A stretch of DNA of 64,000 nucleotides from an uncultured Candidatus Peribacteria bacterium (lineage in GTDB: Bacteria; Patescibacteriota; Gracilibacteria; Peribacterales; Peribacteraceae), in assembly GCA_964403335.1 (NCBI GenBank), contig CAYOFI010000004.1, positions 36,566 through 100,565 of the forward strand, written 5' to 3'. Shown piece after piece: positions 2,939 through 64,000 of this stretch (position 1 is the stretch's first letter; each line of letters begins with the position of its first letter). The notes below the pieces were generated by a model. That model was not told the DNA's origin. It saw nothing but the letters and a program-made list of their open reading frames with translations, and made no database searches. The position numbers were made by a program, and so were the translations under genes.

Positions 2939-2963
2939 AGAAATGAGGGGGAATGAAATAAAA

Positions 2964-3115: not shown

Positions 3116-3190
3116 TGGCAGCCCCACGGGGAATCGAACCCCGCTTTCCTGGATGAGAACCAAGTGTCCTAACCGATAGACGATGGGGCC
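3116..3190 (-). tRNA. tRNA-Glu: tRNA-Glu (anticodon CTC)
   Basis: The reverse complement GGCCCCATCGTCTATCGGTTAGGACACTTGGTTCTCATCCAGGAAAGCGGGGTTCGATTCCCCGTGGGGCTGCCA folds as a cloverleaf. It has a 7-bp acceptor stem, an anticodon loop TTCTCAT, a T-arm CGGGG-TTCGATT-CCCCG and an encoded CCA. Confidence 0.9.
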
Positions 3191-3260
3191 ATAGGCATCA
3201 AAGAGCCCGCAGAGTATAGCCAAAATGACATTTTCGTCCAGGCGGATGTAGAATGCCTGC

Positions 3261-3695: not shown

Positions 3696-3720
3696 ATTCT
3701 GCGTATGCGGAGCCGCACTA

Positions 3721-5721: not shown

Positions 5722-5843
5722 ACCAAGGGAGCGTATAATCCCGTATATTCCGCTTCGTGCCGCCGTAGTCAATCTTTCCACACCATACAATGACAGATGA
5801 CGCTTCTGTCTGTGGGAAAATGGTTGGAGTAGAATGTGCCCCG

Positions 5844-7460
5844 ATGCGCCGCATTCTTGTTGCCGGTTTTCTGTGCGCGATGTCCCTGCAGGTCGCCGCG
5901 GCATCCGTATTCGCGCAGGTGCCCGGAACACCTGGGGATATCCCGCCCTCCGCGACCGACCCCCGGCAGCCGCAAAAGGATCCCGGGACGGAGCCGGCAG
6001 GGAATGGAGAGATTCCCGTCGAATCGGCCGCTTCGTCATCCGTTCAGGAAAATCCGCGCTCAGCCGCCGGTGTTCCGGCAGAAGAAACTGCCGCATCGTC
6101 TTCCGTGCCGTCACGCGTCGCGTCGTCTTCGCAGGCGTCTTCCGTGCAGTCGTCGGTTCGGTCGTCCGTCAATCGCGCGCCTCCCGTGCGCGGGACTGTG
6201 CACACGTCATCATCCATCGCATCGTCCGTTCAGTCATCGCAAGCATCATCGGTGACGAGCTCAAGTGCCTCATCGGAACCGATGCGATCGTTCTGGGATC
6301 GCGAACACTTTGGTTACAGCGTGCCGCTTATCGATCCTCAAGTTGTCGCGATTCCTGGAAAGTTTTCGTGGGCAGCCGTTCCCGGGAACCTGTGGTTGGC
6401 GCTGCTCTTTACCATTGTGGCCGGGTGGAGCGGCGTGGTGTTTGCGGGAGCATCAAGCCGGACGTCATCGAAAATCCCGCTGTCGGTACGTCTGGGAATT
6501 CCCGCGTTACTCACGATGCTGATCATCGCCGTGCTGGAGTGGCTGATCCCTCAGGCGTCGGCGCAGGGGACGGACGGCTTGCTTGCGACGGCGTCGTTCC
6601 TGCGCTTGCCCGGATATGCGTTCGTGTTTTTTGTGCTGATGGGTATCACCGATTCCTACTACGGCAGTCTTCGGTCCATGCCGATCAAAGCGTTTGACCG
6701 CTGGCTCAAGCGGCACATCGGGAAAGAAGAATTGCACAAAGCGACGTGGTTTTTATTTCTTCTCGTTCTGTTGTATGGCATCGTCTCGTCGTACCGGAAC
6801 CAGGAGTTCAGCCTGTTGCCGTCCGCTCAGGTGGGCATCATTCTTGTCACGCTCCTTGCGCTTGTTCTGAAAACATATTCCGTCGATGCGTTCAAATTGA
6901 CACTTGCGCGCAGATGGAAGCATCCGTCGTGGTTCATCGCCAATCTTGGCGGATTGATCTTCGCGGCGGTGTGCGTGTTCCTCACACGCGAATTCCAGCT
7001 CAATCCCGGTTTCATGTATGGCGCCCCGATCGGCCTCTATCTTCTTCTGAAAGACCAGCGCAAAGAAGCATTCCTGCAGAGCACAAGCGTGTGGTGGGCA
7101 CTGTTTGTCGCGGGCGTCGTGTGGAGCATTCTGCCGTTGGTCGCACCGTATCCCGTGCTCCATGACACGTTGCTTGCCGTTCCGTTTGTGCTCATCGAAG
7201 GACTCTTCTTTGAACTCATTCCCATTCCGTCCATGTACGGCGGTGCGATCTTCCGGTGGAAAAAACCCGTGTGGGCCGTGCAGTTTTTTGCGGTCACGTT
7301 CCTCTTGTTTCAATTCATCTTCCGGTCCGGGCAAAGCGTCGGCGCGTTGCAGGAATCCCCGCCGACGATGTTCATGCTGATCGGGCTGGCATGCTATGCG
7401 GTGGGGACGGCCTGTTTGTGGATGTACGTGATGCTGCGCCGTAGACACGGTATGCGATAA
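5844..7460 (+). CDS. Hypothetical polytopic membrane protein with a Ser-rich N-terminal linker
   Basis: It has a signal peptide MRRILVAGFLCAMSLQVAAASVFA, then about 130 aa of S/A/V-rich low complexity, then at least 8 hydrophobic helices. Confidence 0.7.
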   Translation: MRRILVAGFLCAMSLQVAAASVFAQVPGTPGDIPPSATDPRQPQKDPGTEPAGNGEIPVESAASSSVQENPRSAAGVPAEETAASSSVPSRVASSSQASSVQSSVRSSVNRAPPVRGTVHTSSSIASSVQSSQASSVTSSSASSEPMRSFWDREHFGYSVPLIDPQVVAIPGKFSWAAVPGNLWLALLFTIVAGWSGVVFAGASSRTSSKIPLSVRLGIPALLTMLIIAVLEWLIPQASAQGTDGLLATASFLRLPGYAFVFFVLMGITDSYYGSLRSMPIKAFDRWLKRHIGKEELHKATWFLFLLVLLYGIVSSYRNQEFSLLPSAQVGIILVTLLALVLKTYSVDAFKLTLARRWKHPSWFIANLGGLIFAAVCVFLTREFQLNPGFMYGAPIGLYLLLKDQRKEAFLQSTSVWWALFVAGVVWSILPLVAPYPVLHDTLLAVPFVLIEGLFFELIPIPSMYGGAIFRWKKPVWAVQFFAVTFLLFQFIFRSGQSVGALQESPPTMFMLIGLACYAVGTACLWMYVMLRRRHGMR

Positions 7461-7503
7461 TTGCCGCAGAAATCGGACTCGTATCCGTCATCTACCAAGC
7501 ATT

Positions 7504-8493
7504 ATGAAATTTTACTGGGCCGTCCTCCGGCAGAGTTTCCGCGAGTGGAAAAAAGACAAGGCGCCGCAATTGGCGGCTTCCACGGCGTATTACACTATTT
7601 TTTCATTGGCGCCGTTGCTCATAATCATTCTGGCATTTGCGGGGATGTTTCTGGATGCGAACGCCGTCCAAGAATCCCTCTTCGGGCAGATGCGGGGACT
7701 GGTGGGGGAGGCGGGCGCGGAGAGCATCCGGTCGATGGTGGAGGCGTCGCAGCGCTCGCCGAACACGCCGCTTGCCGCGGTCCTGGGATTCCTGATCTTG
7801 GCGTTCGGCGCGACGGGATTGCTGATGGCACTGCAGGACGCGCTGAATTTCATGTGGAAAGTGGAGGCAAAAAAGAGCACGAATGCGCTGGCCATGATCG
7901 GGCTCAAGCGATTGGTGTCGCTGGGGATGATCCTCACGATCGGATTTTTGTTGATCATCTCGCTCGTCGTCTCCGCGCTCGTCGCGCATACGGTGGAGTT
8001 TGTGTCGGGTGGTGCGGAAGCGTGGTTGCCGCTTGTGAATATGGCCGTGTCGTTCGGCATTATCACGCTGCTCTTTGCCCTGCTGTTTATCTATTTGCCC
8101 GATGTGCGCGTACGCTGGAAGGATGTCTGGCCCGGGGCGTTGCTGACGGCATTTCTGTTCACGCTGGGAAAATTTCTTTTGGGGTATTACTTGGGACAGA
8201 AGGATTTTACATCAGCGTACGGGGTGGCCGGATCGATCATTATTTTGCTGCTCTGGGTGAACTACTCCGCGCAGATCTTTTTCTTCGGGGCGGAGTTCAC
8301 CAAAGTGTATGTGTACGCGCGCGGGGCACCCGTGCGGCCCACCAAGTACGCGCGCTTTATCGAGGAAGAGCTTCCCAAAAAACAGAGGAACATCCCGATA
8401 TTCAAAGTTCTCGCCATCGTCGGCAAAGTTCTTCTGGTGGAAGGGAAGACGGCGTGGAGGGTGTGGCAGGTCTACCGGAAGTGGAAGAAATGA
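7504..8493 (+). CDS. YihY/BrkB family membrane protein
   Basis: The N-terminus MKFYWAVLRQSFREWKKDKAPQLAASTAYYTIFSLAPLLIIILAF is characteristic, and six TM segments follow. Confidence 0.85.
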   Translation: MKFYWAVLRQSFREWKKDKAPQLAASTAYYTIFSLAPLLIIILAFAGMFLDANAVQESLFGQMRGLVGEAGAESIRSMVEASQRSPNTPLAAVLGFLILAFGATGLLMALQDALNFMWKVEAKKSTNALAMIGLKRLVSLGMILTIGFLLIISLVVSALVAHTVEFVSGGAEAWLPLVNMAVSFGIITLLFALLFIYLPDVRVRWKDVWPGALLTAFLFTLGKFLLGYYLGQKDFTSAYGVAGSIIILLLWVNYSAQIFFFGAEFTKVYVYARGAPVRPTKYARFIEEELPKKQRNIPIFKVLAIVGKVLLVEGKTAWRVWQVYRKWKK

Positions 8494-25065: not shown

Positions 25066-26529
25066 TCATCGCCGCTTTGCCCTGAACACGCCTCCGCCCG
25101 CCCGCTTATCGAGCAGCAACTGCATATAATCAGCGGTCACATTCTTGAACGGCGCGGCCACGTCTTGTTCGCGGATATCGAATTCCGCCAGCACGCGCAG
25201 TTGTCCGATGGAGCAAATGGAGACTTCGTTGATATGGCCGTGGCCGGCCTCGCGCAGTTGGTGGTCCAGCATGTAGCCGCGGAAGTACGCCAGGTCTTTG
25301 GCCATCGCGAATTTGAGGGGGTTATGCATATCCAAGTGCCCGCGCATGACGCGGTACGACGTTCCCCATGCGGACTCCATCACTTTTTCATACAATGCCG
25401 GGTCTTTGACCTGCGTGTGCGAAAACGGCGTGTGGAAGGGGACGCCCAGTGCGATCCGGAGCCGTTTTTCCATCTGATCCACGAACACATCGTAAAACGA
25501 TCCGCCATTTTCAGCGGTGTGCACGGCAAACACATAGTAATCCAGGTTGCGCATCTCGTACTCGCCGCCGAAGTACGTACTGCGGAATCCCGTCTCGTAG
25601 CGCATGGCCAAGCCTTCGTAGAGGGTTTCTTCGTCAATCTTCAGCGGCCCGCCGCCGAACATGAACAACCGCTCGCCGTTCCACGATTGGCGCGCATGGC
25701 CTTCGATCTCATGGGCGATCAGTCCCAGGAGCCGCTCGCCCGTCTCGCGCGAACTTTCCGGCACGAAGACCGTGGGACCCTGCGCGGATTTATCGCGCAC
25801 ATCGATGGCCGTTGCGCGACGGTCGACCACCACTTGGTAGCCCTCGGTATTCTCCGGCGTGCGCAGTATTCCATACTGCTCCAGCGCCCACTCGAATGCT
25901 TCTTTCACGGAAGCGGCATCGAACATCAGCGTGCGCAGATACTGTTTTTCTTCATCCGAGAGTTTTCCGGGATTGCCTTCCATCGTTTCATTGCGCGCGG
26001 TGCGGTTCATGAAGTCTTTTTGTGCAAAGTCATAAATCAACGGGTCCACGCCGGGATATTTGTACTGCAACGCCTTGGCGATCTTGGATTCGTCTTTTTC
26101 CTGCACACCCAACACCAAATCGCACGTGGCCAAGTCATCTTTCAGCTTGTAGTAAAACATCAGCTTCATCAGTTTGCTGCTGCGGTCGGGCGTGGGGCAG
26201 GAGCGGACGTTTTCCAACATCTCCGTCAGGATCGCCGGGGCGTCGCCGAGGGGGAAATGTTCGGCGTAATCGTAGACGAAGCCGGGTTGATACGGCCGGT
26301 TGTTCCGGAAGGCCGCGAAGAATTTACGTTTCTCGTTCTGCAGGCTTTTGGGTTCCGCGGTATAAATCTCCACCGGATTCCATGACCCCGTGATGCCCGG
26401 CAGGCGCTCGGCAACATTTTTCAGCACCGCGGGCAGGTCGCTCACCTTCGGCACGGGAAGTTTGCGCACGTGCTTGCCCCGCCGCAGGAAGGCGGCAATC
26501 TCGGGGAGCGGTGAGGACGGTTTCTGCAT
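25066..26529 (-). CDS. DUF1704 / 'QEGLA-motif' family putative metallocarboxypeptidase (MATCAP-like), stand-alone
   Basis: AHEIEGH (HExxxH) is followed by ETLYEGLAMRYE. The start is set at the ATG at 26529, because the 679-aa extension is antisense to the next real gene. Confidence 0.7.
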   Translation of the reverse strand: MQKPSSPLPEIAAFLRRGKHVRKLPVPKVSDLPAVLKNVAERLPGITGSWNPVEIYTAEPKSLQNEKRKFFAAFRNNRPYQPGFVYDYAEHFPLGDAPAILTEMLENVRSCPTPDRSSKLMKLMFYYKLKDDLATCDLVLGVQEKDESKIAKALQYKYPGVDPLIYDFAQKDFMNRTARNETMEGNPGKLSDEEKQYLRTLMFDAASVKEAFEWALEQYGILRTPENTEGYQVVVDRRATAIDVRDKSAQGPTVFVPESSRETGERLLGLIAHEIEGHARQSWNGERLFMFGGGPLKIDEETLYEGLAMRYETGFRSTYFGGEYEMRNLDYYVFAVHTAENGGSFYDVFVDQMEKRLRIALGVPFHTPFSHTQVKDPALYEKVMESAWGTSYRVMRGHLDMHNPLKFAMAKDLAYFRGYMLDHQLREAGHGHINEVSICSIGQLRVLAEFDIREQDVAAPFKNVTADYMQLLLDKRAGGGVFRAKRR

Positions 26530-26619
26530 AGGTGAGCGCAAAGGGCCTGGTATATAGTGACGGTCGGGAGGGCGGTTTCTGTCGGAATACGGTTCCGCGA
26601 TCCCGGCAAGAAGAGTACC

Positions 26620-27285
26620 ATGACAGGGATGAAGATTTTCGCGTTGGAAACCAACGACGACAAGCTGGAAAAGAGCTTTTTGTCGCGTGATGAGGAGGTG
26701 ATCCTCCGCGTGAAGTTCAGCGGATTTCTCTTTGTCATGCGCACGTTGCGGACGCTGGTGATTTCCAGCGTATTTGTCGCCGTGGGGATCGGATTGGCCT
26801 ATCTGCAACTGCCGATCCTGTGGATCACCGTCGCCCTGTTGGCGGTGTGGTTTTTTGTGACGTTCCTTCCGTGGATAACCGCGTACATCGATTGGAGATA
26901 TGACACGCTGCTTGTCACCACCGAAGAAGTGGTCTGGGTGGACCAAAGCTCGCTCTTTCATGTCCATATCCGGCAAATGAACATGGACAACATCGCCAGC
27001 GTCTCCGCGGAAACGCAGTATCTGAATTTGTTTCCGTTCGGGAAGCTGCATTTTGATCTGAAAGAAGGGACCGGCAAGACGCTCATCCTCGGCTATATCC
27101 CGCACTCACAGCGTGTCGCATCCATCATCAGCGACGGCATCGTCCGTTTCCAGCGGCGCCGTGCCGCCGCAGCGGCAACGGCCGCAGTGGGCGGGTCACC
27201 GCAGCAAATTCAACAGGCGCAGGAGAACGCGGCTCCGACGCCGGGGGAGAAAGTGGCGACGGATGAGGGGGTGGAGAGGAAGTAG
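26620..27285 (+). CDS. Membrane protein with a bacterial PH (DUF304/YdbT-like) domain
   Basis: Two TM helices (LVISSVFVAVGIGLAYLQLPILWITVALLAVWFFVTFLPWI) are followed by a beta-rich domain. Confidence 0.55.
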   Translation: MTGMKIFALETNDDKLEKSFLSRDEEVILRVKFSGFLFVMRTLRTLVISSVFVAVGIGLAYLQLPILWITVALLAVWFFVTFLPWITAYIDWRYDTLLVTTEEVVWVDQSSLFHVHIRQMNMDNIASVSAETQYLNLFPFGKLHFDLKEGTGKTLILGYIPHSQRVASIISDGIVRFQRRRAAAAATAAVGGSPQQIQQAQENAAPTPGEKVATDEGVERK

Positions 27286-27316
27286 AGCAGTAGCAGCCTC
27301 ACCCCCTACCCCCCCC

Positions 27317-27416
27317 CTCTCCCTGCGGGGAAGAGAGAGAATGTATGTTTTTTGTGTTTCTTCAACACGCAAACAAAACATCCAACACCCTCCTTCTCCC
27401 CGCAGGGAGAAGGAGC
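27317..27416. repeat. GC-rich REP-like inverted repeat pair with a nested AT-rich hairpin (convergent terminator region)
   Basis: ctctccctgcggggaagagag (27317-27337) pairs with cttctccccgcagggagaaggag (27394-27416), sharing a 14-nt core. An inner hairpin atgttttttgtgt / acacgcaaacaaaacat lies between them. Confidence 0.75.
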
Positions 27417-27432
27417 TGGAGGATGAGGCCCC

Positions 27433-28860
27433 TCAGTACGCCTTCGCAAACAACGCCATCGTCACCGCCGGTTTTCCGGACAGCACGTCGTTTTTGCCCT
27501 TCACGGATTCCTCTTTCTCCGGAAGCAGACGGATGGTGGCTTTCGTCTTGTCCTTGATCTTGTTCGCCGTCTCCAATGTTCCATCCCACGGGGCCCAGGC
27601 GAATCCGCCGGCTTCCATGTGCGCGGCCAACTCGTCGAAACTGCCGACGGTCTTGGTCTGCGCGTGCAGGAATTCCTCGGCTTGGCGGTAGAGCGTGTCT
27701 TGGATGTCGGAGAGGAGAGCGAGCATCGATGATTCCGTGCAGTCATCCATCTGCATCGGCTTCTTTTCGCTTGTGTCGCGGCGGGCGAGGATGACCTGTT
27801 TTTTGTCCAAATCCTTCGGTCCCAGCTCGATGCGCACGGGCACGCCTTTCACTTCGCATTCGTTGAATTTAAATCCTGGCGATTTGTTGTCGCGGTCGTC
27901 GATCTTCACGCGGACACTGCCCAAACTCTCTTTCAGATTTTTGCATGCCGCGAGGACGGCATCGCGCTCGGCATCGGTCTTGTAGATCGGAACAATGACG
28001 GCCTGGAAGGGCGCGACGGTCGGCGGCAGTCTCAATCCTTTGGCATCGCCATGCACCACGATCATCGTGCCGATGATGCGGGTGGAGAGACCCCAGCTGG
28101 TGGTCCACGGCGACTTCCGCTGACTGTCGGTGTCCAGATATTGGATGCCGTACGCCGCGGAGAATTCATTGCCGAGCCCATGGGACGTTCCCGCCTGGAT
28201 GGCTTTGCCGTCGCGCGCGAGGGCTTCGGTCGTCAATGTATATAGAGCGCCCGCGAACTTCTCATGCTCAGGCTTTTTGCCGCGTAGAACGGGAAGCGCC
28301 AAGAACTCACGATCGAAATCGACATACATTTTGAGCGCCGCTTCCACCATCGCATCCGCATCTTCTTTCGTTGCATGCGCCGTGTGGCCTTCCTGCCAGA
28401 GGAATTCCAGAGTCCGGAGGAAGGGCCGTGTGCGCATTTCCCAGCGCACCACGTTGCACCACTGGTTCACTTTCAGCGGCAAGTCGCGGTGGCTTTGGAT
28501 CCATTTGGCGAAGGTCGTGTAGATGATCGTCTCCGAGGTGGGGCGGATGTAGAGTTTCTCGCTCAACTCTTTCCCGCCGCCATGCGTGACCACAGCACAC
28601 TCCGGCGCAAAGCCTTCGATGTGTTCTTTCTCCTTGGCGATGACGGATTCCGGAATGAAGAGGGGGAAGTAGCAGTTCTGCACGTCCAACTCTTTGATCC
28701 TGCGGTCCAAATCGCGCTGAATGTTTTCCCATAAGGCATAGCCGTAGGGCTTGAAGATGATGCAGCCTTTGACGTCCGCGTGCTCGGCCAGGTCCGCCGC
28801 GGCGATGGTATCCAGGTACCACTGAGGGAAGTCTTTTGCAGGGTCGGCGAGGTGGGGCAT
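27433..28860 (-). CDS. proS: Prolyl-tRNA synthetase, archaeal/eukaryote-like type
   Basis: The 475-aa protein has no insertion domain. It reads FPQWYLDTI...GCIIFKPYGYALWENIQ, has class II motifs, and ends in a C-terminal Tyr (...FAKAY). Confidence 0.92.
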   Translation of the reverse strand: MPHLADPAKDFPQWYLDTIAAADLAEHADVKGCIIFKPYGYALWENIQRDLDRRIKELDVQNCYFPLFIPESVIAKEKEHIEGFAPECAVVTHGGGKELSEKLYIRPTSETIIYTTFAKWIQSHRDLPLKVNQWCNVVRWEMRTRPFLRTLEFLWQEGHTAHATKEDADAMVEAALKMYVDFDREFLALPVLRGKKPEHEKFAGALYTLTTEALARDGKAIQAGTSHGLGNEFSAAYGIQYLDTDSQRKSPWTTSWGLSTRIIGTMIVVHGDAKGLRLPPTVAPFQAVIVPIYKTDAERDAVLAACKNLKESLGSVRVKIDDRDNKSPGFKFNECEVKGVPVRIELGPKDLDKKQVILARRDTSEKKPMQMDDCTESSMLALLSDIQDTLYRQAEEFLHAQTKTVGSFDELAAHMEAGGFAWAPWDGTLETANKIKDKTKATIRLLPEKEESVKGKNDVLSGKPAVTMALFAKAY

Positions 28861-28941
28861 GGACGGAGTCTACGTGACCGCGGGAACGGCAGGAAGGGCC
28901 GGGAACGCAGAAACGGCTATCTGCAAGGTTTGTGCGGTATA

Positions 28942-28970
28942 TTGTTATATTTATAAAAATATGGTATAAT
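28942..28970 (+). promoter_or_regulatory. Sigma70-like promoter in an AT-rich patch: TTGTTA - 17 nt - (TG)gTATAAT
   Basis: The -35-like ttgtta is at 28942-28947 and tggtataat at 28962-28970, 25 nt upstream of the ATG at 28996. A palindrome tggtat-N10-atacca overlaps the -10 hexamer. Confidence 0.55.
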
Positions 28971-28995
28971 ATTAAAAATACCAAAACTCCACTAT

Positions 28996-30393
28996 ATGCG
29001 TCCAATACCCGTGGAATCAGGCCTTGAGCGGCCTGACCAAATGCGTCCGGAGCAGAAAGTGCAGCAGCGTTTGCAGGCGGCGCAGAATTTGACGCGTACG
29101 TATGAGGGCAGAACGGGACGGTCGCCCGGCATGCTCTCGCAGTGGATCGGGCGGTTATGGCAGAGCATGAGTACGGCATTCTTCCGTCCGTCGCCGGCCC
29201 CGCGGCATTTCGCCGTGCAAGCCCCGGTCACCCCGCAGCCGTATAACAAGTTGCAGCCCGTTCCCCAGTTTGATGTTCCCTCGAAGAGTTTCCAGCAGCC
29301 TGCGGCTCCGTCTCCCTCTCCGGCGACGCCCTCCAAACTTGATGTCCGCGTGCAACCCGTGCAACCGCCCGTTACCGTCGTCTTTCCCAAAACTCAGCCG
29401 GAAACGACTGAGACTCTTCCGTCGCTGAAAGACTGTATCGACCGCATGTTCGCGGCATTGAGGGCGTACACCGGCGATGCGCCGAATGCGGATCCGACGG
29501 TCCGTGCCGCTCTGGATGCCTACGCCGCCGCATTTTTGCGGTCGCCTTACTACACCAAGATGCGCGAGGCGGATGCTCTGAATGGCGGGGCGAACAAGGA
29601 AATGCTTTCGCTTGCGCAGAGCGGGGATTTGGAAGGTTTACGCAAGGTCAACACCGCATATTCGCAGCGGCTGGGGGAGCGCGGTGGCGCTGCCAACCAG
29701 CCGGGTGTGGTGCTGAATGATGAGCAGCTTCTGCAGCTGCGCGACGGTTTGCTGCGCGATGCGGCGAAGACGCGGGCGACCGAACCGCCGTTGGCGCGTT
29801 TTACCAAGCTGTTGGATATTGCCGGAAACGCCCCAGGCTACCAATTAACGGTCACGGGGGAGGGGACGATCACGGTAGGCAAAAAAGGCCAAGCCGCTCC
29901 CGAGTCGCGCGACAACGAGCCGAAGGATCTGGCCGACAGCATCGTGCGGTTGGTTGCGGCGCTCAACGCGTATAAGGGGTCCGCTCCGGATGCCGACCCG
30001 GCCATCCGTTCGGCGGTGCGCACCTACGTCGAATTTTTCAAGCGCTCCCCCGAATACGCGGACATGATGTTTTACGATAAAACCGACGAGGATTGGTTCA
30101 ATGAAATAAAGCCTCTTGCGCTGGTCAACAACCGCAGCGGCATACGCGCGGTGAACGAAAAGTACTCAAAAATTTTGAAAGATCGGGGGGTTCCTGCGAA
30201 TCTGGACAACCGCTATATGCGTTTCCAGCTCCCCGAAAACCCCTCTGAGGTCATGGGATATTTGCTGACGGCTAAGCCCAAGCGTCGCACGCCTCTGCAG
30301 GAATACACCGCGAAGCTCAACATCGGGCAATTCGCTCCCGGCTACCGGCTGACGGTCGCGGCCAACGACGCGATCAGCGCGACCAGACAGTAA
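28996..30393 (+). CDS. Hypothetical protein with a Pro-rich N-terminus and two tandem ~155-aa repeats
   Basis: aa 141-298 and 308-465 align: L.D.I.R..AAL.AY.G.AP.ADP..R.A...Y...F.RSP.Y ... VN..YS..L..RG..AN ... APGY.LTV. Confidence 0.7.
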   Translation: MRPIPVESGLERPDQMRPEQKVQQRLQAAQNLTRTYEGRTGRSPGMLSQWIGRLWQSMSTAFFRPSPAPRHFAVQAPVTPQPYNKLQPVPQFDVPSKSFQQPAAPSPSPATPSKLDVRVQPVQPPVTVVFPKTQPETTETLPSLKDCIDRMFAALRAYTGDAPNADPTVRAALDAYAAAFLRSPYYTKMREADALNGGANKEMLSLAQSGDLEGLRKVNTAYSQRLGERGGAANQPGVVLNDEQLLQLRDGLLRDAAKTRATEPPLARFTKLLDIAGNAPGYQLTVTGEGTITVGKKGQAAPESRDNEPKDLADSIVRLVAALNAYKGSAPDADPAIRSAVRTYVEFFKRSPEYADMMFYDKTDEDWFNEIKPLALVNNRSGIRAVNEKYSKILKDRGVPANLDNRYMRFQLPENPSEVMGYLLTAKPKRRTPLQEYTAKLNIGQFAPGYRLTVAANDAISATRQ

Positions 30394-30411
30394 TCTGCTA
30401 TACTGGTCTCC

Positions 30412-31152
30412 GTGGCCCGCGATCTCAAAAAAGCATTGGAAGAGCACAAGAAGGCCGAAGTGCACGGCAGCCGTTTAGGGCCTGTCATTCACGATATCGT
30501 CTATGGAGCGCATGACGGCATCGTCACAACGTTCGCGGTGGTGGCGGGAACCGCAGGGGCGGATTTGACGGCCGGCATCGTCATCATCCTCGGCATCGCC
30601 AACCTGCTGGCCGACGGCGTGTCCATGGGCGCGGGGGCGTTCCTCTCCGCCAAATCCGAGCGCGACCAATATCAGCGCCTGCTGAAAGAAGAGCTGCAGG
30701 AAATTGAAGATGATCCGGAACTGGAGCGCGAAGAGGTCCGTGAGTTTTACGAAAAGCGGGGATTCACGGGGAAGGACCTGGACCGCGTCGTGCAAGTGCT
30801 GACGTCCGACAAACGCGTCTGGGCGCACACGATGATGCGGGAAGAGCACGGTATGAGCGAGGACGGCGGCGGGCAGGGATGGAGGCCCGGCATCGCCACG
30901 TTCATCGGATTCGTCATCTTCGGAGCGGTGCCACTCCTGCCGTATTTCTTCGATGTTCCGCCGGAATATCGCTTCACAGCCGCCATCGTCGGGACGTTTT
31001 TGGCCTTGGTGCTGGTCGGGGTGACGCGCAGCATCGTCACGCGCGAACGCATCTACCGCGGCGCAATCGAAATCGTGATCATCGGCGCAGTCACGGCATC
31101 AATCGCCTACGGGGTGGGAGTGGCGCTCAAAGGCCTGGCGGGCGCCGTTTAA
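30412..31152 (+). CDS. VIT1/CCC1 family iron/manganese transporter
   Basis: [21 protein letters not shown]...[19 protein letters not shown], a central acidic loop and C-terminal TM helices. Confidence 0.85.
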
Positions 31153-31571
31153 ATCGCGGTCATGCTCAGCCAGATGCCGATGAGCGTGATGGCGGATCCA
31201 AACAGGATGCCGCCGATGACTTCCACGAACGTGTGCCCCAAGCGTTCCGGGAACTTGGACCACTTTTGCAGTTTGTTCAAGATCTTCGCCTGCTCGCCGA
31301 TCGCGCGGCGCGAGTTCATGGCGTCGTACCAGGTGATGCTGGCGAAACAGAAGGCGATCGCGAACGCGATGCTTTCCAGCCCCGTCTTCCACCACACGAT
31401 AATCAGCAACGACATCACGAATGCCGAGTGCGTGGAGGGCATGCCGCCCGGCCGGAAAAACCCGCCCTTGAACGTTCCTTTCTCGTATCGTTCCGAAAGA
31501 ATCTTTGTCGTCTCACACAAAAACATGACGACGAGCGGGATCAAAAATGGATACTGGCGGAGGAGGGACAT
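31149..31571 (-). CDS. Divergent PAP2 (DUF212, acid phosphatase/vanadium haloperoxidase-related) membrane protein
   Basis: [15 protein letters not shown] ... [17 protein letters not shown] ... [14 protein letters not shown]. Confidence 0.75.
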
Positions 31572-57136: not shown

Positions 57137-58057
57137 ATGTCGCCCCGCATCATTTTCATCACCGCGTTCGCCGCCATCATTCTCCTGTTCCTGATTGTCG
57201 ATTTAGGAGTGATGAACCGCAGCGCGCACAAGGTGTCGGTCAAGTCCGCTGCCTGGCAGAGCTTGTTTTGGATCGCGGTGTCATTGTTGTTCGCGGGGAG
57301 TTTGTTTCTCTTCTATGACCACACCAAGGCGATTGAATTCCTGAGCGCGTATACGACGGAAAAAATGCTGTCGGTGGATAACCTGTTCGTGATTTTGCTG
57401 ATCTTCAATTATTTCAAGGTCGAGGAGAAATATCAGCACCGCGTGCTGTTCTACGGCATTCTCGGCGCCATTGTCATGCGGGCGCTCTTTATCGGGTTGG
57501 GATCGGTGGTGGTGTCCATGTTCCATTGGATCTTGTACATCTTCGGCGCGATGCTCATCTACGCAGGCATCAAGTTGCTCTTTGAGAAGAAAGAAGAGCA
57601 CGTCGATTTCCGCAACAGCAAGCTCTATAAATTGGCGCACAAGATGTTTCGGTTCACGAGCAACCATCATAACGGGAAATTCATGGTGCGGGAGAACGGC
57701 AAATGGTTCTTCACGTCGCTCTTCCTGGTCATGATCCTTATCGAATGGACGGACCTCATCTTCGCCGTCGATTCCATCCCCGCCGCGTTTGCCATCTCCC
57801 AGGATCCGTTCGTGATCTACACCGCCAACATCTTCGCCATCTTAGGGCTTCGCGCTATGTTCTTCCTGCTGGAAGCCGTCATCCACAAGTTCCACCATCT
57901 CCAAAAGGGCTTGTCGCTGGTGCTGATTGTCATCGGCGGCAAGATGCTCCTGGAGATTTTTCATATCGAGATTTCGTCATTGGTGTCCTTCGTGACGGTC
58001 ATGGCGTGTCTGGGAGGGTCGCTGCTGCTGTCGGTGCTGTTTCCGAAGAAGATCTAA
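57137..58057 (+). CDS. TerC/Alx family integral membrane protein
   Basis: EKMLSVDNLFVILLIF ... TDLIFAVDSIPAAFAISQDPFVIYTANIFAILGLRAMFFLL. Confidence 0.9.
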   Translation: MSPRIIFITAFAAIILLFLIVDLGVMNRSAHKVSVKSAAWQSLFWIAVSLLFAGSLFLFYDHTKAIEFLSAYTTEKMLSVDNLFVILLIFNYFKVEEKYQHRVLFYGILGAIVMRALFIGLGSVVVSMFHWILYIFGAMLIYAGIKLLFEKKEEHVDFRNSKLYKLAHKMFRFTSNHHNGKFMVRENGKWFFTSLFLVMILIEWTDLIFAVDSIPAAFAISQDPFVIYTANIFAILGLRAMFFLLEAVIHKFHHLQKGLSLVLIVIGGKMLLEIFHIEISSLVSFVTVMACLGGSLLLSVLFPKKI

Positions 58058-58062
58058 CGATC

Positions 58063-58545
58063 ATGATTGATGTTGAGTCCATTCGCGCTCTTGTCGCCCC
58101 CGTCGTGATGATTTCTGCGCAGGGGCTTATTTGTTTGGCTCTCTATAACCGTTTGGCGGCTGTGGTCGGCCGCTTGCGGATGTTCTCGCGGGAACAATTC
58201 GACGTGCGTCTGCATGTGGGCGGCACCGCCTCAACACCTCATGATGACGATACGCTCCGCGCGATACAAGCACGTCTGCAGACCTTGGATGATCAGTATG
58301 CGGGTGTTCTCCGCCGGGCAGGGTTGTTGCGTAATGCGTTGATTCTCCTGCAGTCGGGGGTGTTGGCAATGCTCATATGCATTTTGTTTTTGGGTGTCTC
58401 GCTCCTGTTGCCGGGCATGGAATCCTGGTCGCTTGTGCCGTTCTTCATCGGCATCCTCGCCACGGCAAGCGGAATTGCCATATCCATCCACGAACTTGCC
58501 ACCGCCTTGGAGCCTGCCAAAGCGGAACAGAATTCCTTTCGGTAG
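58063..58545 (+). CDS. DUF2721 domain membrane protein
   Basis: ALVAPVVMISAQGLICLALYNRLAAVVGRLRMFSRE... plus two C-terminal TM helices. The ATG at 58063 lies inside the longer tracked ORF. Confidence 0.7.
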   Translation: MIDVESIRALVAPVVMISAQGLICLALYNRLAAVVGRLRMFSREQFDVRLHVGGTASTPHDDDTLRAIQARLQTLDDQYAGVLRRAGLLRNALILLQSGVLAMLICILFLGVSLLLPGMESWSLVPFFIGILATASGIAISIHELATALEPAKAEQNSFR

Positions 58546-58751
58546 CAGTCTGGTATATTGGTAAGTTTGGATATGGAAGTGGCAGCCCCTAGTAGAGACT
58601 ATTCGAACCTTCTGGGAGGAGTCACAAGAGGTATTTGATCTACCTGTTCTTTCTGCATGCTGATGCAATTACACAGCGTCAGATTTCCTTTATTCGTTGT
58701 GAACTTCACACTACGAAAATTGGTTGGGCTGTGGCAAACTATATTTTAACC

Positions 58752-59717
58752 ATGACCTCTTCAACCTCTGAAAAACAGCTCACGGCAAATCGCAATAACG
58801 CGCTCCTAGGAGGTGTAAAAACGCCACACGGTAAAGCCGTATCTAGTAAGAACGCGATAAAGTACGGGATTTTCTCAAAGGCTGTAGTCCTGGAAGAGAT
58901 TGAGGATGAAGAGCTGTATAAAGATATGCGATCACAATACTTTGGAGAGCTACAACCCGTGGGCATTGTTGAAATGACTCTCGTAGATAGAATTGTTTCG
59001 CTTCAGTGGAGGCTTGCGCGTATCACTAGAGCGGAAAGTGCCATGGTCTTAAAAAGCCGCATGGACACGAGAATGAAGCACACACTTGAGGATGAGCAGC
59101 ACCTACTTCTGCATGCCGAACGGCCTACAATCGACTATGTTGAGCATTTTCGAACAAGCCTCGTATGTAAGTCATTAGTTGATTCAGTTGATAATTTCGT
59201 TACTGCATTGGACTGGTTTGGGCTCCCTTTAAGCCCACATTTTCGTGAGCAGTTGAAAGATAGGTTTGGCACAACCCATGAATTTTCGCAGATTAAACAT
59301 ATCTTAGATTTTGATTTTATTGCTCAGTCGCGGGTACGTGGTATGAAGTTGGAGGCAGTTCTTTGGAAGGATAGGATCGCTGATCCTGAGTTATTAGAAG
59401 ACGATAAGCAGGTATTGAAAAATATGACCAAGATAGCCCGCGAATTCGCAGGATACATGCTGGAAAACGCAAAGGTGCGATTGCGGATGTGGGAGAATAT
59501 GGAATTGCAACGGGACATGGCAGAGGAGGATTCAAGGCTGGTTCCACCAGAGAAGGAAATGCTTGCGATTCACCGTGGGGAATCCAACCTGCACCGAATG
59601 TTTATGCATTCGCTTCACGAGCTTCAAAGGCTCCAAAGTGCCAGACAGGGCAATAAGCCTCCTTTACCTGCTGCGATTGACGTAAACATGAACAATGAAA
59701 ATGGGTTCGATTTGTAA
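58752..59717 (+). CDS. Hypothetical protein (321 aa) with an N-terminal 'ANRNNA..GG.KT..GKA.SS.NA.K.G' motif
   Basis: MTSSTSEKQLTANRNNALLGGVKTPHGKAVSSKNAIKYGIFSK..., then a helical body. The start is the ATG at 58752. Confidence 0.65.
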   Translation: MTSSTSEKQLTANRNNALLGGVKTPHGKAVSSKNAIKYGIFSKAVVLEEIEDEELYKDMRSQYFGELQPVGIVEMTLVDRIVSLQWRLARITRAESAMVLKSRMDTRMKHTLEDEQHLLLHAERPTIDYVEHFRTSLVCKSLVDSVDNFVTALDWFGLPLSPHFREQLKDRFGTTHEFSQIKHILDFDFIAQSRVRGMKLEAVLWKDRIADPELLEDDKQVLKNMTKIAREFAGYMLENAKVRLRMWENMELQRDMAEEDSRLVPPEKEMLAIHRGESNLHRMFMHSLHELQRLQSARQGNKPPLPAAIDVNMNNENGFDL

Positions 59718-59733
59718 AATTACCTCAAATGCC

Positions 59734-60378
59734 ATGTCAACGCTTGAACTCATAATCAAAGAACATCCGAAGAAACCCGATGAGTCTGAACTGGCTTTCT
59801 CTGATCGCGTAGATGAACTTATGATTCGTAAACTCCTCGAAAAGCAGTCTAAAAAGAAGCTAACCCAAGCAGAATATAAAGAAGCAACTGATGTAGAAAA
59901 AAGGGTTAATGGGAGAACTACCCTACAGACAGGATTAATCCCTGTTGCCATTACAGATAAACAATTGAAGCCAGCAGCTGAAAGACTACATCGAGAACTC
60001 ACGGAAGAATTTAAGGGTGATACTACCTCTAAACGACTTCTAATTGACCGTTTAGTGTCTGCATGGAGTATGTCATGGACCTACGAAAAAATGCTCTTTG
60101 GTTCGAAGTATAAGTCGAGTGAAGATGATACGAAGGTCTCATTCAGCTATGAACTAGATAAAACCAAGTACTTAAAGGAGGCGCGGTTAGGAATTGAAAC
60201 AGCAAATGATCAGATAATGCGGCTCACTCAAGCGCTCCAAAATCTCTGTCACCCGCCTATTCAAGTGAAGGCGAAGAACGCCTTTTTCGCTCAAAACCAG
60301 CAAATAAACCAAGGTCACCTGCCTAAAGATTTAGCAGATTCCAAAGAGCATTCCCATGACTCAAAACTCTCTGATTGA
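59734..60378 (+). CDS. Hypothetical protein (about 214 aa)
   Basis: Helical, Lys/Glu-rich ORF. An alternative start at 59695 overlaps the upstream gene. Confidence 0.55.
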   Translation: MSTLELIIKEHPKKPDESELAFSDRVDELMIRKLLEKQSKKKLTQAEYKEATDVEKRVNGRTTLQTGLIPVAITDKQLKPAAERLHRELTEEFKGDTTSKRLLIDRLVSAWSMSWTYEKMLFGSKYKSSEDDTKVSFSYELDKTKYLKEARLGIETANDQIMRLTQALQNLCHPPIQVKAKNAFFAQNQQINQGHLPKDLADSKEHSHDSKLSD

Positions 60379-60652
60379 ACGTGCAGAAAGGCTCTGCATT
60401 CGTGATATACAAGCCGTAATTCCGCAAAATTCCCTCACTGCAATTTTGCAACTTGAGGGAAGGTTTGGCCTTCAGGATGTTCAAGTAGTAGGGATGCTCA
60501 CAAATTTGAGAAACGGGTATAGGTATTACTTTCTCTGTCCACGCTGTGATCAGGCGTTTGTAAGCCTCTATCGCCAGGACTTTGGACAATACGCCTGTCG
60601 GCGTTGTCTGGGTTTGTTCTACGCTTCTTCGATGCGTGTGGAGATCACTTAA
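60356..60652 (+). CDS. Hypothetical zinc-ribbon protein (98 aa)
   Basis: YYFLCPRCDQAFVSLYRQDFGQYACRRCLGLFYAS (CxxC...CxxC). It overlaps the upstream gene by 23 nt. Confidence 0.5.
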   Translation: MTQNSLIERAERLCIRDIQAVIPQNSLTAILQLEGRFGLQDVQVVGMLTNLRNGYRYYFLCPRCDQAFVSLYRQDFGQYACRRCLGLFYASSMRVEIT

Positions 60653-60863
60653 AAGTGATCATGTCGTTCGGCTCCATACCAAACGCCTTTGCGATCTTCT
60701 CCAAAGTGCTGAGCCTCATATCACGCGGCTTTTTGCTCTCGTACCGCTGGTAATACTTGTACTCCATTTTGCACTTACGAGCAGCGTCTTCCTGCGTCCA
60801 GCCACGCTCTTCACGAAGCTCTTTTAAGCGTTTTGCCAACTTTGTTCCTGTGTCTGATGTCAT
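60645..60863 (-). CDS. XRE family helix-turn-helix transcriptional regulator
   Basis: LAKRLKELREERGWTQEDAARKCKMEYKYYQRYESKK...LSTLEKIAKAFGMEPNDM. Confidence 0.88.
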   Translation of the reverse strand: MTSDTGTKLAKRLKELREERGWTQEDAARKCKMEYKYYQRYESKKPRDMRLSTLEKIAKAFGMEPNDMITFK

Positions 60864-60952
60864 CCCTCTAAGTATCGGGATGGTTCGATACTCTTTACAC
60901 CGTCATATGTGACGGTGTAGGCTCCAAGACAACTATTGCCCCCTCACCTTTC

Positions 60953-61699
60953 ATGAAGAGCAATTTCATTAAATATGTCGCTATAGCTAGCTTTATTCTG
61001 AGTCTTTCTCCTCTTGCTTTTGCGGCAAGCACCACCGATGAGAGCGCAACAGTCATGAGGGTAGTCGATGGCGACACCATTCAAGTAAAGCTTTCAACTG
61101 GAAAACTGGAGAAGGTTCGGATCATCGGTATTGATACTCCTGAAACGGTGGACCCGCGCAAAGCAGTCCAATGCTATGGGAAAGAGGCATCTGCAAAAAT
61201 GAAAGCACTACTGAATCGTAAGAAGGTGACACTCGAAAAGAATCCCGCAGAAGATAGGGACAAGTATGGTCGTCTTCTTAGGTATGTGAGTTTCAAGGAG
61301 AAAGACATTGGAGCGCAGATGATCGAGGATGGATTTGCATTTAGTTATAAGAGCTATCCGCACCCACGGCTTGACCAATACAACGAGCTTGAAAAGGTAG
61401 CTTCAGAATCAAAAATTGGTTTATGGGGTGCGAAATGTGATTACTCAAAGTCCATATCAAAGTCCTCTTCTTCGGCTACTACATTGAATCAAAGCAGTGC
61501 TGCATCGTCAGTAAGTTCGGTATCAGGTTCATGCACAATCAAAGGAAATATCAGCAGTAAGAAAGAGAAAATCTACCACGTTGAAGGTTGTGGTAGCTAC
61601 AACGCTACACAAATCGACACTTCAGCTGGTGAGCGTTGGTTTTGCTCTGAGGCAGAGGCACAGGCGGCTGGATGGCGTAAAGCAATGAATTGCAATTAA
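60953..61699 (+). CDS. Secreted thermonuclease (SNase fold) with a Ser-rich linker and a C-terminal Cys-containing 'sunset'-like domain
   Basis: It has a signal peptide, [16 protein letters not shown]...[11 protein letters not shown]...[13 protein letters not shown]...[10 protein letters not shown], and a C-terminal CTIKGNIS...[13 protein letters not shown]...[16 protein letters not shown]. Confidence 0.85.
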
Positions 61700-61717
61700 C
61701 CCTCTCTATTTTTTGAT

Positions 61718-62170
61718 ATGGCAGCTACTACCACGCTGATGCGAAAATGCCCTTTCTGTGCCGAAGAGATTAAAACGGAAGCCGTGAAGTGCAAGCATTG
61801 CAAGGCAGACCTCTCAGAGGCTTCCTCTTCTGTGAAGCCGCAAAGCTCAGAAGGCAAAGCCAATCCTCTACAAAGAGCAGGATTCATGAAATCCATTGGC
61901 GTGAGTATCCTGTTTGGCATCGTTATGATCGGTTTAGGAGGACTGATTACCCTTACTGTAGTTGGAAGCATCGTGGGCATTCCAATGATGTTGATTGGAG
62001 GTGGAGCGGTCCTTCTCTCTCCAGTGATGTTCTTGGCTTTGAGCCAAGGCAATTGCCCTTACTGTCAGCATGAAGTGATAATTATGAATGGAAAGAAAGT
62101 AGTGAAATGCACCTCCTGCAAAATCCGCTTTTCCGTCCGTGACGGCTTCCTTCACCGTATTCCCAAATAA
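61718..62170 (+). CDS. Zinc-ribbon membrane protein (150 aa)
   Basis: It has an N-terminal CPFCAEEIKTEAVKCKHC, two TM helices and a second ribbon CPYCQHE...CTSC. Confidence 0.7.
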   Translation: MAATTTLMRKCPFCAEEIKTEAVKCKHCKADLSEASSSVKPQSSEGKANPLQRAGFMKSIGVSILFGIVMIGLGGLITLTVVGSIVGIPMMLIGGGAVLLSPVMFLALSQGNCPYCQHEVIIMNGKKVVKCTSCKIRFSVRDGFLHRIPK

Positions 62171-62173
62171 TCC

Positions 62174-63550
62174 ATGGCAGACACCAAACAATGTCCCTTT
62201 TGCGCTGAAGAGATAAAAATAGATGCTATTCGCTGCAAACACTGCGGCGAAAATTTGGAAGCACCTGCTGCGAAGCCCAAAAAAGCTACGCCATCCCTCA
62301 AGGAAAAGCAGGTATCTGTAAAAGTCCTTGTCTGGGCGCTCATCGGACTTGCGAGCATTCTCTTTTGGTACATCACCATTCCTGGGGTTGTGATCTGGTA
62401 TCTCTATAAGAAACCCCAGCAGCGAGAGAAGGTCATGCGCTTCTTACGAAAGGTGTTTGCTATGTTGCGAAGGCAGTGGAAGATCGTCACACCCGTTGTC
62501 GCTGTTTTCCTGCTCATTGCAGCCGTGCGCAGCTATAGCGCACCGCGAGCCGCAGCCATTGAGCTCAGCGACAAGTATGAGTTCACTGGGAACAGCGTGG
62601 AGATTACGGGAAAGGCTTCAGCACACTGCTCATGCTCTTTAGAGCTCTCGGTAAACGGCAACCCCGTGCAGATCGAGGGCGATGCCTTCAAGACGACTAT
62701 CGATGTCCCAGGCGGCACGGACACTGGCAAGGTGGAAGTCGCTGCGAAGGTGATAGGAGGCAGGTTCAACGCAAAGACCTTGGAAACCACAGTCGAGAGC
62801 GTTTACCAACGGAAGGGTGTTCCTATCGACGTAACGAATATAGTTCTCCAAACAGCAGATACGAAGTATCTGCTGACCCTTCATGGCTTACCCTCTTCGG
62901 TAGTCACGGTGAAAGGCACGGATGAGAAGACGGTCACATTGGACGCAAATGGCAGCGGCTCTATCCTCATGGCCTTCAACACTGCCTACAACGCACAGAC
63001 GATGAAGTATGTGCTCACAGCCAAAGCAGAGGGCTATGCGAACGGGATGAAGGAGGTAGAAGTGAAAAATCTCAAGTATGACGAAAAGCGCGTTGCTGCT
63101 GATCAGGAGAAAGAGCAGAAGAGGCTCGCAGCGGAAACCGAGAAGAAGCGGGTCCAAGATCTCATCGACAACATGCAGTACTACGAGGGCAAGGATGTGA
63201 AAGTAGCCCTGAATACGAAGACTATCCGTAGCAACTGTATAAGTTACAGCTGCGTGAACGATCCTAAAGACTTCACCTACGTGCGCATTGGTGTAGCAGT
63301 TGAGAATGATGGCGGGAGCGTCATTCATGCCAATCCCAACTACATTACAGTTGAAGGCAGTGATGGACGCACCTACACGCACGAATCTGCGACCTACAGC
63401 CGTGGTAACTATTTCGATGCTGTGAACCTGCAACCAGGGGCGAACACCAATGGATGGCTCGCCTTCATCCTGCCAAAGGATGAGCATGAATTCTTGCTCA
63501 TCTATGCAAGCAGCGATGGAACGGTGGCAAAGAAGATGTATGTCCCATGA
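62174..63550 (+). CDS. Zinc-ribbon / TM / Ig-like repeats / DUF4352-like C-terminal domain protein (458 aa)
   Basis: It has an N-terminal CPFCAEEIKIDAIRCKHC and two TM helices. The C-terminus reads VRIGVAVENDGGSVIHANPNYITVEGSDGRTYTHES...NLQPGANTNGWLAFILPKDE. Confidence 0.7.
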   Translation: MADTKQCPFCAEEIKIDAIRCKHCGENLEAPAAKPKKATPSLKEKQVSVKVLVWALIGLASILFWYITIPGVVIWYLYKKPQQREKVMRFLRKVFAMLRRQWKIVTPVVAVFLLIAAVRSYSAPRAAAIELSDKYEFTGNSVEITGKASAHCSCSLELSVNGNPVQIEGDAFKTTIDVPGGTDTGKVEVAAKVIGGRFNAKTLETTVESVYQRKGVPIDVTNIVLQTADTKYLLTLHGLPSSVVTVKGTDEKTVTLDANGSGSILMAFNTAYNAQTMKYVLTAKAEGYANGMKEVEVKNLKYDEKRVAADQEKEQKRLAAETEKKRVQDLIDNMQYYEGKDVKVALNTKTIRSNCISYSCVNDPKDFTYVRIGVAVENDGGSVIHANPNYITVEGSDGRTYTHESATYSRGNYFDAVNLQPGANTNGWLAFILPKDEHEFLLIYASSDGTVAKKMYVP

Positions 63551-63632
63551 TGAGCAAATTTTATTGCACAGAATGTTTGTACTGCGCAATAAAGGCAGAG
63601 ACGGTGTGTAGGCTATTTTCTACTTCTTCCCT

Positions 63633-63761
63633 ATGACACTCACGCCCGAACAGCTGAAGGCAGGTATTGAGTTCTTTCAGATATTGGCGAATATTCAACG
63701 CAGACTACTCCTTGAGGAGAAACAAAAATCAGAGATACAAAAGGAAAATACGAACGAATAA
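63633..63761 (+). CDS. Possible small ORF (42 aa)
   Basis: MTLTPEQLKAGIEFFQILANIQRRLLLEEKQKSEIQKENTNE. This is weak support, based on the ORF only. Confidence 0.2.
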   Translation: MTLTPEQLKAGIEFFQILANIQRRLLLEEKQKSEIQKENTNE

Positions 63762-63886
63762 CTCCCTTAAGAACTACACACCGTCAGTTTTCCTTAATTG
63801 AGTAAGGCAACAGAAGAATGTAACCTTGCAAGGTGGTAAAACCTAGAAAAACTGCGGCAAGAAAAAATACTGCGGGAGGTGCGGCA

Positions 63887-64000
63887 ATGGGTGCTGGTCA
63901 ACGTTTTCAAGCTCAAGCTGCTACGTGGTGGGCAATGCGGATTCTTCTACGAACGCCCGTGGAACAAGCGTTTGGCCTGCCAGCTCAATCTATCCCCGAA
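63887..64000 (+). CDS. 5' part of an ORF truncated by the window end
   Basis: GGGAGG lies 7 nt upstream of the ATG. The ORF reads MGAGQRFQAQAATWWAMRILLRTPVEQAFGLPAQSIPE... An in-frame GTG at 63833 is an alternative start. Confidence 0.45.
   Translation, partial: MGAGQRFQAQAATWWAMRILLRTPVEQAFGLPAQSIPE

Follow-up and report, generated by a model that had tools for sequence, protein, structure and literature searches.

Gene content and base composition of the C4 contig end

Bacteria of the candidate phyla radiation (CPR, or Patescibacteria) have tiny genomes and a presumed dependence on hosts; few routes by which they exchange genes are known, and to our knowledge their mobile elements have barely been described. 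Here we analysed the last 5.4 kb of a 64,000-nucleotide stretch of DNA (the window; G000:C4:36566-100565) from a Peribacteria metagenome-assembled genome (MAG). The assembly under study is designated G000, and C1, C2, C3, C4, C5, C12 and C15 denote its contigs. It comprises 18 contigs of 1.32 Mb in total, with a GC content of 0.56 and an estimated completeness of 87%; contig C4 stops 631 nt beyond the window end. The findings below make it very probable that window positions 58580-64000 form the left arm of a ~30-kb mobile island, integrated by a large serine recombinase (LSR) at the tRNA-Glu(TTC) gene of this genome.

The genes at the host side of the segment, TerC and DUF2721, have a host-like GC content at third codon positions (GC3; 0.80 and 0.65, respectively), and the change in composition that follows is therefore abrupt. 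Measured in 2-kb intervals, GC content fell from 0.55-0.61 before ~58.5 kb to 0.45-0.49 after it. Genome-wide 5-kb intervals averaged 0.562 with a standard deviation of 0.024, and those covering the island at the end of C4 reached 0.467-0.471; the island GC content of 0.466 lies about four standard deviations from that of the genome. By tetranucleotide distance, C4:95001-100000 ranked second among 500 genome intervals (z = 5.35). Pooled GC3 of the island genes was 0.49 (0.32-0.61 per gene), compared with 0.727 +/- 0.057 for 28 host open reading frames (ORFs) of the window. The original prediction, made by a model from the sequence alone, had described the DNA as A/T-richer from ~58.55 kb, and the GC, GC3 and tetranucleotide statistics all deviate from the genome accordingly. 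It had also named AAA, GAA, ATT and TTT as favoured codons; ATT and TTT are overrepresented at the expense of ATC and TTC, but AAA and GAA are raised only slightly. The tandem-repeat hairpins that it had reported missing here are indeed absent beyond 55.3 kb of the window, although this absence alone is weak evidence and not significant, because only ~2.4 would be expected in 5.4 kb.

Proteins were annotated with Pfam, PHROG and PADLOC profiles, and AlphaFold2 (AF2) models were compared by Foldseek. The segment was compared with island copies in G202, G289, G243 and G002, which belong to other Peribacteria genera, and at locus L037. It opens with three overlapping genes, F1, F5 and F8, which are convergent with a gene for an XRE-family regulator (Table 1). 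Homologues of F1 with 80-91% identity occur in four or five other genera, and in a set of 5.8e9 proteins it has only 33 relatives; those that carry a name come from the CPR. It matched no Pfam, PHROG or PADLOC profile. Its AF2 model is all-alpha (pLDDT 74, pTM 0.43) and gave no Foldseek fold match from which a function could be assigned, the best match in the Protein Data Bank (PDB) reaching only E = 0.05 and a TM score of 0.16. F5 likewise had no significant family match in these three profile sets, and the synteny of F8 extends over four islands, with 64-85% identity. The XRE proteins of G000 and G202 share 100% identity, those of G000 and G289 97%. Between its gene and the adjacent nuclease operon lies the palindrome ACACCGTCA-TATG-TGACGGTGT, which is invariant in four islands within variable flanks and occurs once in the window, where 0 occurrences would be expected by chance; it is likely to be the operator of the XRE protein.

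The operon encodes a predicted secreted staphylococcal-type nuclease (SNase) with a signal-peptide-like N-terminus and a Cys-containing C-terminal domain, which also matched the nuclease family phrog_20876 (E = 5.6e-29) and the PADLOC model C3a212 'SNc+LTD' (E = 2.8e-35). Two zinc-ribbon membrane proteins follow. The first is 85-88% identical in G202, G289 and G243; the second has an N-terminus paralogous to the first and is 67-70% identical in three islands. The content of orphans, an XRE regulator, a secreted nuclease and zinc-ribbon membrane proteins given by the original prediction was thus confirmed by annotation.

Table 1 Features of the island arms and of the host-side left flank. Positions refer to the window unless a contig is given.
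Feature	Position	Strand	Evidence or remark
TerC and DUF2721 genes, host-side left flank, outside the island	57137-58545	+	Pfam TerC E = 5e-52, DUF2721 E = 1e-12
attL core, 10-bp direct repeat TGGCAGCCCC, left island end	58580-58589	+	Reverse complement of the last 10 nt of tRNA-Glu(TTC)
Detached 3' tail of the LSR ORF, 27 codons and stop	58580-58663	+	Frame continues the LSR frame across the repeat
F1, 322-aa all-alpha orphan	58749-59717	+	Most conserved backbone gene of the left arm
F5, 227-aa orphan, 23-nt overlap with F1	59695-60378	+	Syntenic, 64-75% identical in four islands
F8, 98-aa zinc-ribbon protein, 23-nt overlap with F5	60356-60652	+	Pfam Zn_ribbon_TFIIB E = 1.8e-5
XRE-family helix-turn-helix regulator, 72 aa	60645-60863	-	Pfam HTH_3 E = 3e-12
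Palindrome between XRE gene and nuclease operon	60897-60918		Candidate XRE operator
SNase, 248 aa, predicted secreted	60953-61699	+	Pfam SNase E = 1.7e-24
Zinc-ribbon membrane protein, 150 aa	61718-62170	+	Pfam Zn_ribbon_3 E = 4.7e-5
Zinc-ribbon/transmembrane/DUF4352 protein, 458 aa	62174-63550	+	Pfam DUF4352 E = 1.5e-11
5' end of the ~1630-aa defence candidate PDC-M54A	63833-64000	+	Gene continues to the contig end, C4:101196
LSR, 547 aa, gene overlapping tRNA-Glu	C5:83318-84961		Pfam Resolvase and Zn_ribbon_recom, phrog_95 integrase

Borders of the island and its probable division over two contigs

The original prediction had begun the island at 58546 and had found no direct repeat, integrase or tRNA there. 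The left end in fact lies 34 nt further on, and it carries a direct repeat after all: the 10-mer TGGCAGCCCC, an identical copy of which terminates tRNA-Glu(TTC) at G000:C5:83365-83374. Homology among the G000, G202, G243 and L037 copies begins precisely at this 10-mer. The tRNA gene (C5:83300-83374) is followed by a 6-kb low-GC contig end that also holds an LSR gene, so that both a tRNA and an integrase exist, and the right border lies outside the window as had been supposed, with the end of contig C5 as the right arm.

In BLAST comparisons, C4:95145-101196 aligned to positions 1860-7866 of the G202 island at 76.4% identity, up to the very end of C4, and C5:89444-83296 aligned to positions 25851-31414 in collinear order. 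The host flank past the tRNA (pyrG, pyrD and pyrK) is common to G000 and G202 at 69% identity. Two collinear blocks and a shared pyrG-pyrD-pyrK flank therefore place one G000 island across the ends of C4 and C5, with ~18 kb of its middle absent from the assembly. When all G000 contigs were searched for this middle with the G202, G289 and G002 islands and the G002 proteins, only C4 and C5 matched, besides an unrelated island on C2. Islands in MAGs with termini on two scaffold ends and "missing middles" have been described with TIGER2 (PMC9580842), and the G000 island resembles that case in having its termini on two scaffold ends and its centre absent from the bin; TIGER2 is a detection method and not a biological family. 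For annotation, the island supplies a reason for the C4 contig end and joins two contigs of the MAG.

The C2 island, at tRNA-Pro, was considered as the right arm and rejected, as its LSR is 31-36% identical over the N-terminus only and the C5 arm is collinear with the relatives. It occupies G000:C2:64144-71600 (L013 4145-11600) at tRNA-Pro(TGG), with a 580-aa LSR overlapping the tRNA, an OLD/AriA-like ATPase (PADLOC AriA E = 9e-27), a 341-aa tyrosine recombinase and a scaffold gap; one of its ORFs and orf131 of the G002 island share 75% identity. A second copy of the tRNA-Pro end was sought within 18 kb and not found. Within the window, tRNA-Glu(CTC) (positions 3116-3190, minus strand) also ends in TGGCAGCCCC; no island adjoins it, and it is a potential secondary attachment site for the same recombinase.

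Copies of the island in other Peribacteria genera

Complete ~30-kb copies are present in four other Peribacteria genera, at tRNA-Glu, tRNA-Phe and tRNA-Thr, which makes this an element common to at least five genera. Related copies are embedded in 0.4-1.0-Mb contigs of four genomes. By DNA search, window positions 58773-61710 matched G002 at 76% identity, at the start of a low-GC block in a 426-kb contig. In G000, G202, G289 and G002 alike, the direct repeat equals the 3' end of the local tRNA. The G202 island, which shares the pyrG-pyrD-pyrK-tRNA-Glu locus with the G000 right arm, has an 11-bp repeat; 29.5 kb away, at its other end, this 11-mer terminates tRNA-Glu(TTC). The G289 copy lies at tRNA-Phe(GAA) with the 10-bp repeat ATGGTGGCCC, and the G002 copy at tRNA-Thr(CGT) with the 7-bp repeat ATGGAGC.

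The gene order, derived from ORF clustering of five oriented loci, is conserved across the five genomes. On the left stand F1, F5, F8, the XRE gene (minus strand), SNase, the two zinc-ribbon membrane proteins and a 1632-aa protein. In the middle, genes for an excisionase and a tyrosine integrase precede a copper/metal cluster, which takes up ~9 kb of the complete copies and encodes an HMA-DsbD-cupredoxin protein, two DsbA-like proteins, a CsoR-type repressor, a P-type ATPase and a CDF transporter. On the right follow F60, a DUF5659 protein, a Toprim primase, small ORFs and the LSR.

The distribution of the island is patchy. Of 301 genomes of the class, 14 were found to carry F1. G202 has the gene, whereas its congener G167 does not, and a search of G001, from the same genus as G000, gave no island DNA. 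At the tRNA-Glu locus of G167 the island is missing, but the far flank there is unrelated; five relatives with the pyrK/tRNA-Glu locus carried neither the island nor the G000 left flank. No clean empty site with both flanks was thus found among the relatives. Island GC content stays at ~0.47 across hosts of 0.55-0.62. Nucleotide identity along the left arm to G202 and G289 is mosaic, ranging from 61 to 91%. Protein identity is higher for F1 (80-90%), the XRE regulator (89-100%) and the first zinc-ribbon protein (85-88%) than for housekeeping proteins of the same genome pairs (PyrG, 72-75%; PyrD, 65-68%). A distant CPR contig encodes an F1 homologue of 35% identity, ~3.4 kb from an LSR gene overlapping tRNA-Asn(GTT). 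The stretch is a mobile island that was acquired by horizontal transfer.

To the left of the G202 island (oriented positions 1-1859; L031 18141-20000), the DNA is low in GC and includes a masked run of N; another island may be stacked there.

The large serine recombinase and its detached tail

In the G000 LSR, the Resolvase domain (PF00239) was found at residues 6-149 (E = 2.2e-23), together with Zn_ribbon_recom (E = 8.9e-7) and an alignment to the phrog_95 integrase over residues 6-499 (E = 1.5e-57). The last ~20 codons read the antisense strand of the tRNA, and in all copies the LSR ORF spans the junction. The LSRs diverge with their tRNA target: identity is 72% between the two tRNA-Glu copies, 51-52% between tRNA-Glu and tRNA-Phe copies and 27-33% against the tRNA-Thr copy. 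The internal tyrosine integrase, in contrast, is 81-91% identical across all tRNA targets. Because only the LSR follows the target, we infer from sequence that it is the LSR that integrates the island. Integration by an LSR at a tRNA is unusual, because serine-integrase proviruses favour coding targets (PMC13626063).

At the opposite end of the island, the frame that continues the LSR frame across the repeat is open, with the same stop position in five islands and the peptide W(Q/W)P(L/V)VE(T/A)IRTFW...LP.L.A(C/S)*. The G002 tail is open for 22 codons and shares LVE..RT. Synonymous and nonsynonymous codon differences numbered 45:57 in the tail frame, compared with 11:79 and 19:80 in the other frames, counted over non-independent pairs. 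The conserved open tail and its synonymous bias therefore indicate that attP is probably located within the LSR gene and that the complete ORF would exist only in the excised circle, which in turn implies that the circle must matter in evolution.

We propose that the LSR at the right end, whose ORF enters the tRNA, would recombine the final ~10 nt of the tRNA with an attP situated in the 3' part of the LSR coding sequence, thereby regenerating the tRNA and leaving the 10-bp repeat and the detached LSR tail at the left end. The excised circle may replicate, as the Toprim primase suggests. The conserved backbone of the left arm would consist of the F1-F5-F8 operon and of the XRE repressor, which would act through its palindromic operator to control the secreted nuclease and the two membrane proteins. 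Beyond this left-arm backbone there would be a swappable defence slot, filled here by a Cap4-type nuclease fused to a STAND-like NTPase; this protein, PDC-M54A, presumably senses phage and degrades DNA.

More tentatively, and with considerable doubt, the islands may represent a CPR-wide family, undescribed in print, whose LSRs target tRNA 3' ends through an attP inside their own coding region. Integration would replace the last ~25 residues of the enzyme by an antisense reading of the tRNA, and the circular-form tail (58580-58663) may switch the enzyme between integration-competent and integrated states. Retargeting would then proceed by exchange of the LSR/attP module, with the rest of the island remaining 80-95% identical. 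The natural serine-integrase variants for tRNA-Glu, tRNA-Phe, tRNA-Thr and tRNA-Asn could aid retargeting studies, and matched LSR variants could show whether exchange of the attP tail affects directionality.

Directly upstream of the LSR gene, G000:C5:85012-85455 (minus strand; L036 7013-7456) encodes a 147-aa stand-alone resolvase-domain protein, which could be a second subunit or an invertase. In the host flank, a 129-aa four-helix-bundle-like ORF lies between pyrG and pyrD (L036 2236-2625, on G000:C5) and by eye resembles an IVS-type protein.

The putative defence slot

Only 266 codons of the last gene of the arm are assembled in G000. The 266-aa fragment matched the PADLOC candidate PDC-M54A (E = 1.1e-27), and the G002 orthologue matched the whole profile (positions 1-1657 of 1657; E = 4.9e-191). 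The gene matched none of the Avs models in PADLOC, PDC-M54A being its best match. The AF2 model of the head has a pLDDT of 88.7, and its top Foldseek matches are HamA, LmuA, Cap4 and the N-terminal nuclease of Avs3 (E = 5e-6 to 1.5e-3; TM 0.47-0.52), every one of them a nuclease of a defence system. Sequence identity to these solved structures is 10-15%, and a sequence search of the head against the PDB returned ankyrin noise only. Residues E61, D67, D68, Q82 and K84 of the head are invariant or nearly so. Full-length relatives have a P-loop NTPase domain followed by a long helical C-terminus; the NACHT-like NTPase domain PF24883 was recorded for two of them, and the G002 copy contains a Walker A motif. 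According to the model, the gene is thus a candidate for a STAND-like defence protein with a Cap4-type nuclease head. Like Avs3, Cap4, HamA and LmuA, the head adopts a predicted Cap4-type nuclease fold, to which the relatives add the NACHT-like NTPase; unlike Avs, it has no PADLOC Avs match, and the G000 copy ends with the contig.

The corresponding slot of G243 is occupied by a Mokosh-like helicase-PLD protein (MkoA E = 9e-61), and the slot is therefore a site of defence-cargo exchange. The element moves defence genes, either a Cap4-nuclease/STAND gene or a Mokosh-like helicase-nuclease gene in the same slot, and in the relatives also copper/metal resistance. The suspicion of a defence island in the original prediction is in accordance with a horizontally acquired mobile island that carries defence cargo, as the PDC-M54A match suggests.

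Alternative explanations

Since G000 is an 18-contig MAG of 87% completeness and the stretch lies at a contig end with deviant composition, the low-GC end of C4 might be an assembly or binning chimera that is foreign to G000. We regard this as extremely improbable. There is no N gap near the junction, the sole N run of C4 lying at 213-230, and the junction coincides exactly with the tRNA-end repeat. Moreover, the same island sits well inside long contigs of four relatives, in G202 at the very locus that adjoins the G000 right arm. A different question is which enzyme moves the island. It is conceivable that the tyrosine integrase and excisionase of the complete copies (F29/F28) integrate and excise it and that the LSR serves for resolution or inversion: tyrosine integrases are the usual enzymes at tRNA targets, serine-integrase proviruses prefer coding targets (PMC13626063), an excisionase-integrase pair is present in the complete copies, and a shared core of 7-11 bp fits a tyrosine enzyme. 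However, the tyrosine integrase lies in mid-island, 17-18 kb from the tRNA, and is 81-91% identical at three different tRNAs while the LSR diverges with its target. The LSR ORF crosses the junction in all copies, and its tail past the junction is under coding constraint; in addition, the overlap recurs in the distant LSR island at tRNA-Asn, whose called genes include no tyrosine integrase. We therefore consider integration by the tyrosine enzyme quite improbable.

Instead of an autonomous, plasmid-like integrative element, the island could also be a decayed prophage or a helper-dependent phage satellite, like the phage-inducible chromosomal islands (PICI) or the PICI-like elements (PLE). Its integrase, excisionase, primase, XRE repressor and defence cargo form a satellite-like set, several of its proteins (F1, F5 and the 584-aa F60) lack a functional assignment, and CPR phages are poorly covered by PHROGs. 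PHROG matches were limited to the regulator, nuclease, integrase, excisionase and primase, and F60 is the only large protein without a match in the scanned set. Yet no capsid, portal, terminase, tail or packaging protein was matched by Pfam or PHROG among the scanned proteins of the G000 arms and the complete G289 copy, and ~9 kb of the complete copies is devoted to copper/metal resistance, which is commoner in cargo islands; a satellite or decayed prophage is accordingly unlikely. Nor was a relaxase, coupling protein or type IV secretion ATPase found among the scanned proteins of these loci, several ORFs of <330 aa lying outside the scan. The original prediction had offered a prophage or the remnant of an integrative and conjugative element (ICE); in view of these results, the stretch is not supported as either.

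Several observations weigh against an LSR-integrated defence island at tRNA-Glu, the reading that we favour. The link between C4 and C5 is deduced from homology to relatives, and no relative was found in which both G000 flanks are joined at an empty tRNA-Glu site. An exact degenerate pattern for the attP junction had no match in metagenome contigs of the Joint Genome Institute (JGI), in which the attL pattern identified three more left ends with other flanks, three chance matches and no attP. The Recombinase domain PF07508, which is recorded for the distant LSR of L061, was not detected by Pfam in the G000 LSR at E <= 0.001. A shared core of 10 bp is long for a serine recombinase, and the complete copies also hold an excisionase and a tyrosine integrase, so that the acting enzyme is identified by inference. 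Finally, PDC-M54 is a candidate system, and we found no paper naming it.

Comparison with known elements

The closest systems in print are tycheposons and SCCmec. SCCmec (staphylococcal cassette chromosome mec) with CcrAB is an LSR island without phage or conjugation genes that resides at the 3' end of rlmH/orfX, has short direct repeats and carries resistance cargo. The Peribacteria island is similar in being an LSR island that restores the extreme 3' end of a conserved gene and is flanked by short direct repeats. It differs in targeting a tRNA instead of the protein gene rlmH/orfX; moreover, SCCmec employs the pair CcrA and CcrB, and its recombinase gene is internal and uncut by the crossover.

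Tycheposons of Prochlorococcus and other marine bacteria are cargo elements at specific tRNA genes that leave partial tRNA copies; they combine replication modules (primase or helicase) with defence or niche cargo, their integrases group by target tRNA, and 27 of 937 use a large serine recombinase (bioRxiv 10.1101/2020.12.28.424599). The island shares with them a tRNA-specific integrase that tracks its target, a Toprim primase and defence cargo, with metal resistance in the relatives. This likeness is one of layout and working. Unlike tycheposons, the island has a CPR host, and the enzyme at the tRNA is always an LSR with an ORF crossing attP. Its core is only 7-11 bp, compared with tycheposon attachment sites of typically ~40 nt, and a second, tyrosine recombinase lies in mid-element.

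Additional observations in the G000 genome

TerC was detected in 6 of 46 genomes of the family and not in the congener G001, despite its host-like GC3; it may be older accessory material beside a tRNA hot spot. The most deviant stretch of the genome is G000:C15:32000-40546, at a contig end (GC 0.39-0.45; tetranucleotide z = 8.9). Further low-GC blocks are located at C1:1-6000, C1:109-118 kb, C3:2-8 kb and C12:20-27 kb.

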